Positions 10,555 to 22,284 of a DNA stretch of 32,000 bases are shown here, piece by piece (position 1 is the stretch's first letter; each line of letters begins with the position of its first letter). A program made the position numbers and the translations under genes. The DNA is from Candidatus Peribacteria bacterium (GTDB taxonomy: Bacteria; Patescibacteriota; Gracilibacteria; Absconditabacterales; Absconditicoccaceae): contig CP060225.1 of NCBI GenBank assembly GCA_023898485.1, forward strand, positions 412,824 to 444,823. Direction: 5' to 3'. The notes under the pieces are model-generated. The model was not told the origin of the DNA. It saw only the letters and a program-made list of their open reading frames with translations, and ran no database searches.

Positions 10555-11682
10555 CTACTTCCTCTTCCACAATTTCACCTCCTCTCCTCCGTTTCGCCAG
10601 GTCTCATATTTTCGATCGTTCAGATCCATCTTGCCCACATCATACGAGGTAATAAATCAGCCATTCGTCCCCTCTTGTTCCAAGAGTGTGATCAAATCTT
10701 CATAAAATACTTCCATATCCATTTGGTCCATTTCATCTACTGAGCCTAATTTCTCCCCTGTTTGCGGAAGCAAACGTTTACCATACGGAGGATTGGAGAC
10801 GATCATCCCATCTCGATGAGCTCGCTCACCTAATGCTTTGCGCTCTCGTGACACCAGATCACTGACGCCCGCTCTGTCTGCATTCGCTTTTGCATGAGCG
10901 ATCATTTGCAGATCTCTATCTGTACCCTTCAGGACATATTCTTTGCCAAAGAGCATTTTTGCCTCTTCGGTTTTTTTCTTGTTCGCCATATCCACGTTCC
11001 ATGTCGGCCATCTCTCACATCAGAACTCACGACTCAGACCCGGTGCACGATTGACTGCCATCATGGCTGCCTCGATGATGAACGTCCCTGATCCACACGT
11101 CGGATCCAGCAGTGGTTGTCTCCATGACCATCCCATACTCAGGAGGATGGCTGCTGCGACGTTTTCTTTGAGCGGAGCATCACCAGTATCCAGTCTATAG
11201 CCACGCTGATAGAGCGGATCGCCACTCGCATCGACGATCACTTGTACTCTATCCTGAAGGATCGACACCGTCACGAGCTGACGAATCTTCCCATCATCCT
11301 GCTGTCGATGTCCCTCTCCTCCGACCAGCGACTGGATGATAGATTTGTGGGCAATAGACTGTGTCGTACGATCTGACTGGAGTTGGGATTTTCGACTCTG
11401 CACGTGCACGATCACTCCTCTTCATTCGCCAATATACTGAGACCAATCACAAGCAACCACACGATCAAAAAGTGTATCATAATCCGTGATCATCTCATCT
11501 ACCACCACGAGTCAGACCCTATTCGCCACCCTCGATCGGATATTCACGTCCGCAATCGTGTCATAGTCTCCCTCGACCATCACCGAGCTCGTCGTCGTCT
11601 CAGTCGTGACGCAGTCCAGACGCCTGAGTTCTTTTTTGAGTATTTGTCCGGTACCACGCGGACACGTCACTAATAGTTGCAT
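10555..11682 (-). CDS. THUMP-domain class I SAM-dependent RNA methyltransferase (COG0116, RlmL/RlmK-like)
   Basis: [22 protein letters not shown].. (THUMP N-terminus) ..[37 protein letters not shown] (motif I) ..[14 protein letters not shown] (motif IV NPPY). In-frame TGAs join track ORFs 11020..11415 and 10657..10995. TAG stop at 10555-10557. Confidence 0.85.
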
Positions 11683-11715
11683 TGACACACCATCTATAAA
11701 TCAAATAAACTCGTA

Positions 11716-13266
11716 CTACTCTTGATATTGCTTAGTCGCATATCCCAACCGCGCGCCCATCATCAGCATCCATGGATAGATACTCATGCTCTCCATCATA
11801 CTATGGAGCACCAGTCACACGATACCCAGTCACACTGCTCCAAGTAGCAAATATGTTCCATCACTATTTCGTCCATTTCTTCTCCTTATTCCATTTCGTC
11901 CTACCGCCACCCACAAAGCCACCCACAGCACAAAACCAATAATACCCACTTCCATCAGGATTTGGATATACTGATTTTCGGGATGATACACTATCGTGTT
12001 CTCTCCATCTTCTGCTCTATATGCTCCTGGTCAGACCGAAGCAACTCCGTATCCTGTTCGTGGGGACTGTCAGACTTTTTGTATTCATTCAATAAGCAAT
12101 TCAACATGACCCTTGTCAGACAGATCTCTCATCAACACCCCCTGATCACGATCAGCAGCCTGAGGCACATCCACCGGTCAGGCGACACGGATCAGTCCTA
12201 TCGTAGCTATCATTCATAGTCATACTGCCACAAAAAGTGAAACTACTGAACACCAAACACTACTATAAGAGTTTGTCGTAGCAGGTGTACGACAAGTGTT
12301 TGCAAGATCAACACCCGTAGCAGGTGTCGAGCACGCACCGGCTGCGAGACTTGATTTTTTTGCGTACTTTTTGGATCAAGCCAAAAAGTTCGTCCCAGCG
12401 AAGCGTCTCACTAAGAAATGAACAACAAGAACCAGTAAAAGTTCCACCAAGAAAACTCCCCACGCTGCACGAGAGAAGGTCAGTCCCACATTGACCGTCA
12501 ATAACACTATCCAAAACACCATATGTCACCACTTGCTACCATTGGCTACCATTTGTGACCACCTCCATATATACCATGGCGCAAACGCTATCAAGAAAAA
12601 TCCCCAACTGGTCGGTCCACCAAAGATCGATCCATTGCGGATATAGCCCCATCGAACCTGCGTCAGATAGCGTACAGGCGGCGCAAATCATTCACTCCAC
12701 TGATACGCATCCATACTGTATCCAAGCGATACAAGGAGATCTGGGAGCCAGACGCTCAGTCCTCGTCGCGCAATTCCAACGACAAGTAAGACGCTGATGA
12801 TGGTCTGCATGGTTTTGGCAAGACGCTCGTATCATCACTGTAGGCGAACGACGATATATCCTGTGAGGAGGACTATTCGTGGGATGATATCGTATTTGAT
12901 GAAGACGATCCACTCACGGAGTAACTGGTCATGCACACCGAATGCCAGGATCGCAGAGAGAATCAGTAATGTAAGTAATAATCCAATCATCGTCAGGAGA
13001 AACTTGTCTGCAAACAGTTCCTTCATGCTACTTATTCTATTTATTCCACTTCGTCTCTTTCTTCCAAAGACTACCAACCACAGACTACCAACCAATAATC
13101 CTCCAATAATGAGTTCTTTCCACAGCCACACCATTTCTGGTACATCTATACCAAAACCATACACCAGTATCGTACGTAAGACGAATGGTAAGGTCATACC
13201 TATCAACCATAACTGGAGAATACGAATCATAGAAAAGAAAAGAAGAATAAAAGCAACAAGTAACAA
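11716..13266 (-). CDS. O-antigen ligase/polymerase-like (Wzy_C-type) polytopic membrane protein, paralog B, carrying an in-frame inserted element
   Basis: Many TM segments. ..GLTFSRAAWGVFLVELL.. is the Wzy_C-like SR[GA]A motif, followed by ..RTGYGVASV[G]PGAYR..PENQYIQILMEVGIIGFVLW... It is colinear with paralog A. More than 10 in-frame TGAs. TAG stop at 11716-11718. The start is uncertain (TTG at 13266 or ATG at 13230). The loop at 12247-12408 is about 45 aa longer than in paralog A. Confidence 0.7.
12340..12390. repeat. copy A of a conserved hairpin/pseudoknot module, inside the paralog B CDS
   Basis: GGCTG..GACTTGAT-ttttttgcg-TACTTTTTGG-ATCAAG-CCAAAAAGT. There are 35/42 identities to 19629-19670, and the only stem differences are compensatory (GG:CC versus CT:AG). 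Confidence 0.6.
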
Positions 13267-13280
13267 GTAATAAGTACCTG

Positions 13281-14651
13281 CTACCTCTGTTCTACCTGAT
13301 ACCTGTTACTGACATATGCTACCGTCACTCCGTATGGAATGAAAAAGAGGTAATTGACCATGCTATCGATGAAGACATGGAGTACCAGTCACTCGATCAG
13401 TAGGCCACCGAAACCCAATGACATCAGCAATATTAGCAATGAAAATAGCCCTTCATCACCCTCTATAGCCCTTCATCACCCTCTATAGCCCTTCATCACA
13501 TACCCAAACCATGTCAGGACAAACATACCAATCAATACAAGTCATGGTCGTCACATATTGACCACTCGCTGGATATAAACACTCTCTACCATAGACAGAT
13601 CATGCTGAGGACGAGTTTGGTAATCAGGTGCATAGTGCTGTGCTGGTCACGACATGCCCAATCCATAACCTCGTGGATTGTCTTGGATGACACGTCGAGC
13701 AGTAGATCGAGCACTCTCATGGGTCTGTGTCGATCCGACTTTTCGCTGCTGGATGAGACCGATAAAATATCGTGATACCAGTCATACGAAGATACTAAAC
13801 AGCAGTTTTCTCGCTCGAGAAATATTCCACAGGAGGATGATACCCGCAATCATCTGTACACCAAAGGCGACCACTGCTCCTCTACTAAGCGTCGCAAACA
13901 GCGACACCACAAAAAGTACTGTGAACAAGAACACCTGCCAACGGCGGCGGAAAAAGTTCACCACTGCAGATCTATACGATGCAAATGCTACGAGCAAAAA
14001 TCCTAAGACATTGGGTCATGCAAAGAGTCCTGACAGACGCGGATGTCCGTCTGGTCCCGTGAGATAGTACACCGGTGGAGCCATGTCTGGAGAGAAATCA
14101 CCAAATGGCCCATAGCCTAGATACTGGATGAAGATATCAGGAAAAAAGAATTTGAGCCCCTGCCATAGCCAACCGACAATCAGTAACCAGTAAAGAATAT
14201 GAAATACTGCCTTGTGTAACTGTAACAATGAGGCGGATCCTCCATTATCGTCCATAGTCCTTCACCGTCCTTCCTGTTCCTTCCGCCAAAACCCCAACCA
14301 TGTCGCTGATGTCAGGAGGACGAAGGGATAAATATCGTATTTGAAGCCGATGATAAGCTGATATCGTGTCTCTCATACCCACAGTGAGTGTCCGACTCAC
14401 CACACGACCAAAACCAGAAGAGCGAGAAGTAGTCGTTTTCGTTCATGAGCTCGTCTGATCAGCGCTTTGGGATATGAAAACGCAAGTCGTACCAGTAGAC
14501 CAAACCGCAAAACTTCTCTGCCAAAAATTCGCATTCGTTTGGTTCGAGCGAGATCGAGTCCATACGTCACTCGCGCTTGAAGGACGAAACTCGCCGCAAT
14601 CAATACCAAAAATCCGATAACATAATGTGTCACGCGCTGGAGAGAAGACAT
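13281..14651 (-). CDS. O-antigen ligase/polymerase-like (Wzy_C-type) polytopic membrane protein, paralog A
   Basis: (M)MSSLQRVTHYVIGFLVLIAASF.. ..FKYDIYPFVLL.. ..LFATLSRGAVVAFGVQMIAG.. ..PRGYGLGMS[G]PAQHY..ESVYIQRVVNM[G]RP[G]LVLIGMFV... In-frame TGAs join track ORFs 14397..14654, 14016..14255 and 13782..13997, plus the C-terminal TM region. A TAG lies immediately upstream of the start. TAG stop at 13281-13283. Confidence 0.75.
13445..13499. repeat. perfect 20-bp tandem repeat, 2.75 copies, inside the paralog A CDS
   Basis: ATAGCCCTTCATCACCCTCT x2, then ATAGCCCTTCATCAC (plus strand). On the coding strand it reads VMKGYRG[G][G]RAIEGDEGLF, so successive copies are read in different frames. Confidence 0.95.
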
Positions 14652-16744: not shown

Positions 16745-16777
16745 CCAAAACAAAAATCCCGCACTCTCATGCAGGAT
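16745..16777 (-). terminator. intrinsic terminator of the RNase J gene (member of a conserved terminator family)
   Basis: Minus-strand RNA is AUCCUGCA-ugagag-UGCGGGAU followed by UUUUUGUUUUGG. The stem closes with G.U pairs only on the minus strand; the plus strand would have C.A mismatches. Confidence 0.7.
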
Positions 16778-19482: not shown

Positions 19483-19671
19483 CGTCGCAAACACGGCCTG
19501 AGAATAACTAGTTTGTTCATGAAGACAGACTAAACAATCAGATTGCGACTGGGTCCCACCGCAGGTGGGGAGGAGTAATCATCCGTAAACCAAATACGAA
19601 AAAATAACTACACAGAAGGCTGTTTGCGACTTGATCTTTTTGGTTACTTTTTCTATCAAGAGAAAAAGTAA
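19483..19671. ncRNA. candidate structured RNA of unknown class (strand unresolved)
   Basis: It lies in a 370-bp convergent intergenic gap, which is unusually long for this dense window. Elements: a 10-bp long-range helix GTCGCAAACA (19484-19493) with TGTTTGCGAC (19621-19630); a GC hairpin CCCACC-gcag-GTGGGG (19555-19570); and the hairpin/pseudoknot module at 19629-19670. I found no motifs of tmRNA, RNase P, SRP or tRNA. Confidence 0.3.
19618..19671. repeat. copy B of the conserved hairpin/pseudoknot module (intergenic)
   Basis: GGCTGTTTGCGACTTGAT-ctttttggt-TACTTTTTCT-ATCAAG-AGAAAAAGTA. It has a 10-bp stem with loop ATCAAG. The upstream CTTGAT is complementary to that loop. Confidence 0.6.
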
Positions 19672-19673
19672 CA

Positions 19674-19709
19674 ATAAAAAAATAAAAATCCCACACTTGC
19701 GTGCAGGAT
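19674..19709 (-). terminator. intrinsic terminator of the 19735-20307 gene (conserved terminator family)
   Basis: Minus-strand RNA is AUCCUGCAC-GCAA-GUGUGGGAU (GNRA loop) followed by UUUUUAUUUUUUUAUU. The stem arms are identical to those of the copy at 22263-22284. Confidence 0.75.
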
Positions 19710-19734
19710 TCTCATAGAACTAGAAAAATTAATC

Positions 19735-20307
19735 TTAATATAACACATAATCAAAAGGAAATATAACACCTTCAATAGGAATAAGTGGATTACTGATATA
19801 AAGATATGATCCATCATCTAAGATATAATAATACCAGTGTGGGTATATTCAATACGTCTCAATATCTTCTATAATAGCACCTCTTGTCGTACTATCAGCT
19901 ACGATAGAATCAGCAAAATCACTATACACGACATATTGTGGAGCCTGATCAGAGACAACAGCTACCCATGAGCATGTATCCAAGCCACTCACTTCCTGAT
20001 TGGTGCAAACCTCATACACAGTACCACTCAGATGTAACACATCGTCATCATACACACTACCGGTCATTTGTTTTGCCGTAAATATAGGGAACATCCACAG
20101 CATGTCATCAGACATATTATCTATTGCGTCATCTATCATAACTTCCTCCTCAGAGTCAGATGACATATCTGATAAGTCTACGTATGAATTCGAAGCACTA
20201 TCTGCCCAGTCCATTACTATGTTTTCTGGATCAGCCCAGAGATATGCAAGACCCAATCAGACACCAATTCCTAACAAGAATAACAACCATGTTGCAATAC
20301 GATTCAT
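19735..20307 (-). CDS. hypothetical secreted/membrane-anchored acidic protein
   Basis: MNRIATWLLFLLGIGV[G]LGLAYLWADP.. (N-terminal hydrophobic anchor), then an Asp/Ser-rich region. The TGA at 19849-19851 is read through (..IETY[G]IYPHWYYYILDDGSYLYISNPL..) to the TAA at 19735-19737. Confidence 0.55.
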
Positions 20308-20338
20308 ATTTTTATTTAAATACATAATAAAACAAGAA

Positions 20339-20731
20339 TTATTCTATTTCTCCCAATACTACTGTCTCTCATTCCAATTCCATCTTCTCCCATGTGTCAC
20401 GGAGTTTAGGCTCAGTGAAGATCCATGTATCTACCTCATCAGGAAGCTCATCAGTCTGGAGATATTTTTTGGTCTGACACAATACCGAAGTCGTACTAGC
20501 CGTAATGATACTATAGTTCAGCTCACCATCCTGTGATACCCAGACACGATATTGCACACCATCGATATCATACTCACCAGGGTATGAGATCACTCACGAT
20601 ACCACATCATACTCCATATCACTACCGATATGCGACATCAGTGATACATACGCACTATCATGTGTGAGTGGAGCCCAAAGTGTCTTCTGACCTATTTTAT
20701 ACCCATTATCTGTCTTTTTTACCTGTACCAT
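20339..20731 (-). CDS. hypothetical protein
   Basis: MVQVKKTDNGYKIGQKTLWAPLTHDSAYVSLMSHIGSDMEYDVVS[G]VISYPGEYDIDGVQYRVWVSQDGELNY..KMELE[G]ETVVLGEIE. An in-frame TAA lies upstream of the ATG. Two in-frame TGAs. TAA stop at 20339-20341. I recognise no family with confidence. Confidence 0.5.
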
Positions 20732-22256: not shown

Positions 22257-22284
22257 GAAAAAATCCCACACGCTCGTGCAGGAT
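22257..22284 (-). terminator. intrinsic terminator of the sigma4/HTH gene (conserved terminator family)
   Basis: Minus-strand RNA is AUCCUGCAC-GAGC-GUGUGGGAU followed by UUUUUUCU, 20 nt downstream of the TAA at 22304-22306. Confidence 0.75.

Follow-up and report, generated by a model that had tools for sequence, protein, structure and literature searches.

Rickettsia palindromic elements (RPEs) are hairpin-rich, multi-copy repeats of ~100–150 bp, some of which lie in frame within intact genes and add a peptide to the product (PMC10969869). Here, we describe a comparable arrangement in a 32-kb stretch of a Candidatus Peribacteria genome (contig CP060225.1; hereafter the window), in which gene B, one of two adjacent paralogs encoding O-antigen-ligase-like membrane proteins, carries ~155 extra nucleotides within an intact open reading frame (ORF). 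We consider it probable, at roughly 0.75, that this insert is a small, non-autonomous dispersed repeat that is tolerated in a coding loop. Like an RPE, the gene B element is short, palindromic, and multi-copy, with two copies in the window and a widespread family, and it sits in frame in the loop of an ORF that has stayed intact. RPEs, however, are limited to Rickettsia, occur very often within ORFs, and encode a conserved peptide, whereas the repeated part of the insert, hereafter the module, is overwhelmingly intergenic and the peptide read across it is not conserved. Moreover, conservation of the module core spans an entire phylum and reaches into candidate-phyla lineages, with covariation that points to a pseudoknot and probably to a triplex. 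By analogy, the element would work like an RPE without being one by membership. The sequence-only reading of the window had proposed a repeated, structured nucleic-acid element carried in frame in a protein loop in the manner of RPEs, a view that our results largely support.

Other described repeats resemble the module in part. MITEs (miniature transposable elements with inverted repeats), such as the Correia elements of Neisseria, ERIC, RUP, and SPRITE, are likewise small, non-autonomous, multi-copy, and without a transposase of their own; they also share with the module a preference for intergenic 3' regions with occasional intragenic copies, and one module-bearing unit in Arcicella has 23-bp terminal inverted repeats (TIRs). 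In contrast to MITEs, the conserved part of the module family is an internal structured module and not the termini, the flanks vary by lineage, and the insert in the window has neither TIRs nor a clear target-site duplication. Repetitive extragenic palindromes and the mosaic elements that contain them (REPs and BIMEs) are also imperfect palindromes of short length that are enriched where genes converge and occur in mosaics with other repeats. However, neither the module consensus nor any aligned copy has a GTAG or CGTC tag; a given REP is specific to a species, in contrast to the module core, which is conserved across Bacteroidota classes; and the module appears to form a pseudoknot with an upstream segment. 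No gene for a RAYT transposase was found within 2.5 kb of any module copy. At the RNA level, the nearest relatives in shape are the triple-helix H-type pseudoknots of the SAM-II, SAM-V, and preQ1-II riboswitches, of which the SAM-V architecture, at least, is outlined in PMC6061858. These are compact pseudoknots with a U-rich strand placed to follow the major groove of a helix rich in A-U pairs, and their two helices in a pseudoknot topology have a covariation-supported counterpart in the module. The module differs from them in that no Rfam model matches it, in that it is multi-copy and lies in 3' or convergent intergenic regions and not in the 5' leaders of specific metabolic genes, and in that it would use its entire 6-nt loop for the second helix, a kissing-loop-like geometry.

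ORFs in the window are broken up under translation table 11 and long under table 25. In the protein alignment, homologs have a conserved Gly where gene B has TGA codons, which points to code 25, TGA = Gly, as the genetic code of the source organism. With TGA read as sense, two adjacent and colinear Wzy_C paralogs, A and B, lie on the minus strand; they score 36.5 (A) and 38.6 bits (B) against Pfam PF04932 (gathering cutoff 31.7) and match each other in BLASTP with an E value of 2e-10. The loop that follows the TFSRAAW helix in A is NISRARKLL, 9 amino acids (aa) long, and distant homologs have basic loops of 7–9 aa at the position of the insert in B. The loop of B has ~52 aa (RRFAGTNFLAgSKKYAKKSSLAAGACSTPATGVDLANTCRTPATTNSYSS). 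The colinear paralogs, their 9-aa and ~52-aa loops, and the repeats and hairpins in the extra DNA had all been pointed out from the sequence alone, and all of them are in place. The insert peptide is hydrophilic, with a net charge of +6, and lies between two strongly hydrophobic segments of the hydropathy profile. The family-invariant Wzy_C residues are all retained in gene B, the insert notwithstanding, as judged from the homolog alignment. The loop is likely on the cytoplasmic side, because it is basic and thus follows the positive-inside rule. An AlphaFold2 model computed from the B family alignment was poor (mean predicted local distance difference test score 45.6) and uninformative on the loop, and a profile search against PDB sequences gave no match, so that the cytoplasmic placement is a prediction of the positive-inside rule alone.

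The core of the insert recurs widely. We scanned GTDB representative genomes with the 24-nt hairpin pattern alone (ACTTTTTNNATCAAGNNAAAAAGT) and found at least 120 loci with at least 130 hairpin-pattern sites. The sites listed are almost all in Bacteroidota, including Pontibacter, Arcicella, Flavobacterium, Filimonas, Saprospiraceae, Chitinophagaceae, Bacteroidales, and others; among the matches listed, minor carriers are Ignavibacteria, Chlorobi, one metagenome-assembled genome (MAG) of SR1, and a few MAGs with the labels of other phyla. At nearly every listed site, CTTGAT-TTTTTTG-NN-T stands directly upstream although it was outside the search pattern, which indicates a unit of ~45–54 nt. 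A covariance model (R1) built from 35 Bacteroidota sequences, neither window copy included, found the copy in gene B (c1) with 66.1 bits (E 3e-13) and an intergenic copy (c2) with 69.3 bits (E 6e-14). There was no other significant plus-strand match in the 32-kb window, and the sole other match below E 0.01 (25.9 bits) was on the reverse strand of c2. The recurrence in an intergenic region that had been noticed in the sequence was confirmed: positions 12348–12389 are found again at 19628–19669, with 0 matches in window shuffles. Of the 54 positions of the module core, 31 are conserved across Bacteroidota classes.

A second pattern, run on JGI metagenomes, added seven more loci. Four of these (L131 and L134–L136), together with L071, make five carrier contigs that are much richer in long-ORF sequence with table 25 than with table 11, and all module copies on them are intergenic. 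Because these contigs are ORF-rich under table 25, the module family is, on the sequence data, established in SR1/Gracilibacteria-like TGA-recoded lineages. Only 5 module loci were found in a scan of viral contigs, which argues that the family is not mainly phage-borne; one unannotated copy is carried by an Aureibacter plasmid. Several genomes have multiple copies, and copies are often at contig ends. Rfam 15 gave no match to the window or to 18 loci at the gathering score (only tRNAs or sub-threshold noise), and nothing relevant for the module at permissive E values of up to 10. Searches of the literature, whether by sequence string or by topic, returned no description of the module, and it is not mentioned in a Flavobacterium transcriptome paper. 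Together, the matches place the core in a very large, cross-phylum family of putative pseudoknots that is apparently uncatalogued. The element described in a paper on a Cardinium MITE was considered as a relative and rejected, as it is an unrelated IS982 derivative. The sequence-only reading knew of no such element in bacteria of the candidate phyla radiation; the host is indeed a TGA-recoded candidate-phyla bacterium, but the family itself is found mainly in Bacteroidota and is almost always intergenic.

In the module, CTTGAT is followed by T6G and this by a 12-bp A/U-rich hairpin, whose loop is ATCAAG. In the seed alignment, double-sided changes occur at five hairpin pairs in 61 cells, a level reached in 0 of 500 shuffles. 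One pair is a U-G wobble in 10 of the 35 seed sequences on the canonical (plus) strand; these would be C-A mismatches on the opposite strand, so the folded strand is the canonical one, which in gene B is antisense. To assess the pairing of the loop with the upstream hexamer, we counted base combinations in diverged copies recovered by the covariance model. The last base of CTTGAY and the first loop base of RTCAAG form T-A in 98 copies, C-G in 8, and A-T in 2, and are mismatched in 2 (Fisher p = 2e-11). This covariation of the last CTTGAY pair with the loop supports a pseudoknot in which the whole 6-nt loop pairs with the upstream hexamer. The U-rich linker varies together with the stem as well: its first base is C in 0 of 29 copies in which stem pair n2 has A, in 7 of 8 with G, and in 9 of 26 with C (G versus A, p = 8e-7), and in one variant an additional G of the purine arm is accompanied by the matching linker C in the same register. 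The linker therefore likely forms a parallel U.A-U / C+.G-C major-groove triplex; the correlations may partly reflect subfamily descent, since the counts are not independent events, and this weighs against the triplex.

Three known types of element were tried for the module and rejected: a canonical intrinsic terminator is contradicted by the lack of a U-tract after the hairpin on either strand, a CRISPR array by the spacings, which range from 140 to 2300 nt, and an integron attC site by the lack of a fitting GTTRRRY core. In Flavobacterium sp. GT2N3 (L020, positions 640–1600), a dense cluster of module variants of the form TTTCTTTTG..ATCAAG..CAAAAGAAA was observed. One of these variants has a ~38-nt segment inside the hairpin loop, flanked by duplicated ATCAA, which suggests that the module hairpin loop can itself be an insertion target.

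The sequence-only reading held that the frame of gene B stays open only because TGA is sense. Sense TGA is needed, but so is the loss of a TAA that belongs to the family consensus. The module in the gene B frame is ...GCT TGA TCC AAA AAG TAC GCA..., where the TGA derives from the conserved CTTGAT, and at the next point of risk the consensus reads AAG TAA in this frame. In c1, the in-frame TAA is absent because a rare, compensated G-C pair, present in 1 of 35 family members, replaces the usual U-A, with changes on both arms. Code 25 leaves 6 of the 6 frames of c1 open, code 11 leaves 4 of 6, and the gene B frame is open only under code 25. In the consensus, in c2, and in the copy on L071, a TAA closes the gene B frame under either code. 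The reassignment of TGA thus widens the choice of frames in which such an element can be tolerated, for c1 from 4 of 6 to 6 of 6.

Our sampling of gene B orthologs covers three lineages; a search of 5.8 billion proteins gave just three close relatives, and a scan of JGI metagenomes with protein B returned none. P0001 is the gene B sequence with TGA translated as Trp and has the same insert. P0002 (locus L001), with 69% aa identity to gene B, is without ~40 codons of the loop. P0003 (locus L002), with 64% identity, has a loop 25 codons longer than that of L001, decayed and in the same frame. The inserts of L002 and the window can be aligned codon for codon, without a change of frame, across the module and a AACACCCGnAGCA block. 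The module codons are GCT TGA TCC AAA AAG in the window and GAT TGA TAC AAC AAA in L002, and 4 of 11 codons of the module peptide are identical in the codon alignment. One hairpin arm of the L002 module is lost, and its covariance-model score at the orthologous site is weak (11 bits). An ortholog comparison had been proposed in order to look for an empty site, and L001 is without the insert; with L002 shorter and decayed, the orthologs do not all carry an ordinarily diverged protein loop, and copies at the nucleotide level exist elsewhere, one more in the window, others on recoded contigs, and at least 130 sites in genomes mainly of Bacteroidota. The window and L001 proteins are slightly closer to each other (69%) than either is to L002 (64% and 64%). 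The simplest history of these alignments would be a single insertion before the split of the three lineages, followed by loss in L001 and decay in L002.

Elsewhere, the module is a repeat of intergenic regions, in which 121 of the 130 listed sites (~93%) lie. The other 9 pattern sites are inside ORFs of at least 100 aa; the sole one of these inspected (L030) is a chance match without an upstream CTTGAT, which leaves the gene B copy as the only verified copy within a gene. The upstream gene is co-oriented with the module at 51 of 73 listed sites (p = 9e-4), and convergent contexts outnumber divergent ones by 30 to 12 among the listed sites. Clustering of neighboring ORFs revealed no recurrent protein family or transposase within 2.5 kb of the 130 listed sites. 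The second window copy, c2, conforms to this distribution and is located between convergent genes, 258 nt 3' of a plus-strand methyltransferase-like gene. Directly 5' of it, a multi-branch domain of ~150 nt has a minimum free energy of −63.1 kcal/mol (z = −6.6) and is predicted to be closed by a helix that abuts CTTGAT. The same closing-helix architecture is present in L131, L135, L071, and L136 with different, still complementary sequences. This suggests that 19484–19675 on the plus strand is a candidate non-coding RNA of ~200 nt with the module as its 3' domain; it has no match in Rfam.

The flanks of the module are lineage-specific mosaics in Pontibacter, Filimonas, Arcicella, and the recoded contigs. 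In Arcicella (L055, 3678–3919; L036, 6659–6900), the module is part of a 242-bp unit that, being bounded by perfect 23-bp TIRs (AAACATGAGTCATCCCGAATTTT), is a MITE by its sequence. This unit also holds a terminator-like 22-bp hairpin. At Pontibacter (for example, L018), Arcicella (for example, L036), and Filimonas (for example, L019) loci, a hairpin with lineage-specific stems was seen directly 5' of the module, and in these Cytophagales and Chitinophagales copies the 5' hairpin encloses a conserved TGTTTGAGCG...GCGAGTT motif. Many copies also have a GC-rich hairpin after the module, the loop of which can pair with sequence just downstream (for example, GCC-TGTCC-GGC...GGACA).

Based on these observations, we propose that a repeat landed in the DNA for the short basic loop between two Wzy_C transmembrane helices of gene B and was kept in frame, presumably being translated as a long loop. 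On the plus strand, the core would fold into the 12-bp hairpin, its ATCAAG loop pairing with CTTGAT 17 nt upstream in a pseudoknot and the U-rich linker probably occupying the major groove to give a U.A-U / C+.G-C triplex. The module family may act in RNA at the 3' ends of transcripts, as a protective or termination-related structure, a role suggested by its intergenic position, its co-orientation with the upstream gene, and its location between convergent genes. It would be dispersed by MITE-like units that differ between lineages, are moved in trans, and carry the module as cargo. The copy in gene B is most simply a tolerated passenger, since its folded strand is antisense there. Its tolerance could be explained by the permissive loop, by TGA being read as Gly, and by the absence of the consensus in-frame TAA.

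Several findings weigh against this explanation and bear on its alternatives. Of the ~155-nt insert, only ~70 nt (12340–12410) are shown to be repeated elsewhere. The repeated unit in gene B reaches to ~12410, because the AGCGAAGCGT motif that follows the module is shared with recoded contigs, at the same offset in L071 and L134 as TCTAGCGAAGCGTTT and in L131 as the close variant GCCAGCGCAGCGTT. The non-module part of ~85 nt has no copy elsewhere in the sequence data searched, and 12254–12341 gave no significant local alignment with the domains upstream of other module copies. The orthologous L002 insert is the sole sequence to which it is significantly similar (AACACCCGnAGCA; score reached in 5 of 200 shuffles). 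No TIRs surround the insert between 12200 and 12460, where the sole inverted repeat of at least 12 nt is the module hairpin, and the only candidate for a flanking direct repeat is weak (23 nt with 74% identity, 12247–12269 / 12419–12441); we therefore only infer that the element was transposed into gene B. Part of 12254–12341 looks like a local duplication, because its two CGTAGCAGGTGT copies are 39 nt apart and the insert is ~14 codons longer than that of L002. One could thus attribute the entire insert to ordinary loop expansion by local duplication or template switching, with the hairpins and the intergenic resemblance due to chance or low complexity. The modest z-scores of generic folding for 12240–12410 (−1.95 and −2.78) and the lack of other copies of the 85 nt fit that explanation, which we nevertheless regard as very improbable, as duplication accounts for only part of the non-module region. 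For the core at 12340–12410, it is refuted by an E value of 3e-13 from a covariance model trained on another phylum, by the absence of matches in shuffled windows, and by the flank motifs in common with other recoded contigs; for 12254–12341, it is still a possible origin. Even less credible is a removal of the segment ahead of the finished protein, in the manner of an intron or intein, or an origin as an assembly artefact or chimera; nothing was found in favor of either. Rfam gave no match to an intron or ribozyme family, Pfam found only Wzy_C and no intein domains, and the frame is continuous, with an insert length that is a multiple of three. In addition, three further assemblies, which are independent and come from different samples (L003–L005), have an identical insert, and the 100% identity of the locus across the four assemblies excludes an assembly artefact.

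The state of preservation of c1 poses a more serious difficulty for the view of a passenger acquired before the split. Only 41% of four-fold degenerate sites are identical between the window and L002, and yet c1 is intact at every family-invariant position of the seed alignment. A neutral passenger of that age should have decayed, and the pristine window copy therefore speaks for selection, for gene conversion by other copies, or for a re-insertion. One alternative is that c1 is selected for a nucleic-acid function in gene B, as an antisense RNA or 3' end, a roadblock or pause site, or a site at the DNA level. The near saturation of neutral sites and the decay of the L002 copy are consistent with this; moreover, the module peptide is too poorly conserved for selection on the protein to explain the conservation of nucleotides, and the stem change that removes the stop is compensated, which preserves pairing. 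We nonetheless consider such selection unlikely, as any function would be dispensable in close relatives, with the segment absent from L001 and one arm lost in L002; gene conversion or recent re-insertion would give an equally pristine copy, and promoter-like sites are not enriched in the region (26 found versus 30.8 expected). A somewhat better, though still doubtful, alternative is that the repeat arrived twice, an old copy surviving in L002 and a young one in the window having replaced an older, decayed copy at this codon by conversion or having been re-inserted there. This would agree with the presence of the insert in the window and in the outgroup L002 while the sister of the window, L001, is without it, with the contrast between the pristine and the decayed copy, and with the 5' half of the L002 module, which is ~80% like the consensus by hand count versus 41% at neutral sites. 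However, the same-frame codon alignment, which takes in both the module and the AACACCCGnAGCA block, would be expected from one ancestral event, and two gains at an identical site are no more parsimonious than one gain and one loss. A tolerated dispersed repeat in a coding loop continues to be our preferred reading of the insert.

Table 1. Features of the insert in gene B, of the second module copy, and of the two paralogs (positions in the window)
Feature	Position	Strand	Remarks
Whole insert	12258–12412	+ (canonical; antisense to gene B)	~155 nt / ~52 codons; boundaries approximate; from ortholog protein and DNA alignments
Module copy c1, conserved repeat core	12342–12395	+	covariance-model match
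CTTGAT, 5' strand of the putative pseudoknot helix	12350–12355	+	pairs with hairpin loop
TTTTTTG, U-rich linker, candidate third triplex strand	12356–12362	+	correlation with stem pair n2
12-bp A/U-rich hairpin, CGTACTTTTTGG / CCAAAAAGTTCG	12363–12392	+	loop ATCAAG at 12375–12380
Only in-frame TGA (Gly) codon in insert	12376–12378	-	CTTGAT: complement of the loop, in the gene B frame
AGCGAAGCGT motif directly 3' of module	12397–12406	+	shared with recoded contigs
Remaining ~85 nt of insert	12254–12341	+	nested hairpin, ACACC/GGTGT hairpin, direct repeat
Nested hairpin	12254–12302	+	inner stem TTGTCGTA/TACGACAA at 12273–12295; outer stem 12254–12261/12295–12302
Direct repeat CGTAGCAGGTGT, 12 nt	12277–12288 and 12316–12327	+	copies 39 nt apart
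Module copy c2	19622–19675	+	intergenic, between convergent genes
Structured domain	19484–19632	+	closing helix GTCGCAAACA...TGTTTGCGAC (~10 bp) abuts CTTGAT of c2
Intrinsic terminator of minus-strand gene 19735–20343	19682–19715	-	directly 3' of c2 on the + strand
Gene B (host)	11716–13230	-	504 aa, O-antigen-ligase-like (Wzy_C) membrane protein; ORF open under table 25
Gene A (paralog)	13281–14651	-	456 aa; short loop at the position equivalent to the gene B insert

A more far-reaching proposal, which we put forward tentatively and hold to be somewhat short of an even chance, combines several claims. In this proposal, the module is an uncatalogued class of structured RNA with a hairpin-loop pseudoknot and a U-rich triplex, common to Bacteroidota and TGA-recoded lineages; it is carried as MITE cargo and is the 3' domain of an ncRNA of ~200 nt (c2, L131, L135, L071, and L136); it acts at the 3' ends of transcripts, for example by blocking exonucleases; and the copy in gene B is kept by selection or concerted evolution and not merely tolerated.

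The locus would extend in-frame selfish DNA in genes, as represented by the RPEs of Rickettsia, to a bacterium of the candidate phyla in which a stop codon has been reassigned. The module itself, as a compact putative pseudoknot with phylum-wide conservation, at least 130 sites, and no Rfam entry, is common to Bacteroidota and SR1/Gracilibacteria-like lineages, and would mark horizontal exchange between these phyla. If it is a functional RNA at the 3' ends of transcripts, it would represent a bacterial RNA element of a new kind that is easy to test, as cultured strains of Pontibacter, Arcicella, and Flavobacterium hold multiple copies.

Other features of the window were observed alongside the insert. 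A promoter-like site (TTGACA, 18 nt, TAAACT; 11682–11711, plus strand) stands just past the 3' end of gene B and points antisense into it; the module, towards which it is directed, is 630 nt away, and the site may be due to chance, given that its kind is not enriched here. Three intrinsic terminators on the minus strand (16753–16777, 19685–19709, and 22260–22284) have a near-identical stem, ATCCTGCAYGNNNGTGYGGGATTTT, for which 0.01 matches are expected, and by this similarity they are a terminator-type repeat family in the genome. Finally, paralog A contains a perfect 20-nt coding tandem repeat, ATAGCCCTTCATCACCCTCT, in 2.8 copies (13445–13499, minus strand). In L004, an assembly from another sample, gene A has one ATAGCCCTTCATCACCCTCT unit fewer (−20 nt), which leads to a frameshift of the C-terminal part of the O-antigen-ligase-like protein A, an arrangement that looks like slipped-strand phase variation.

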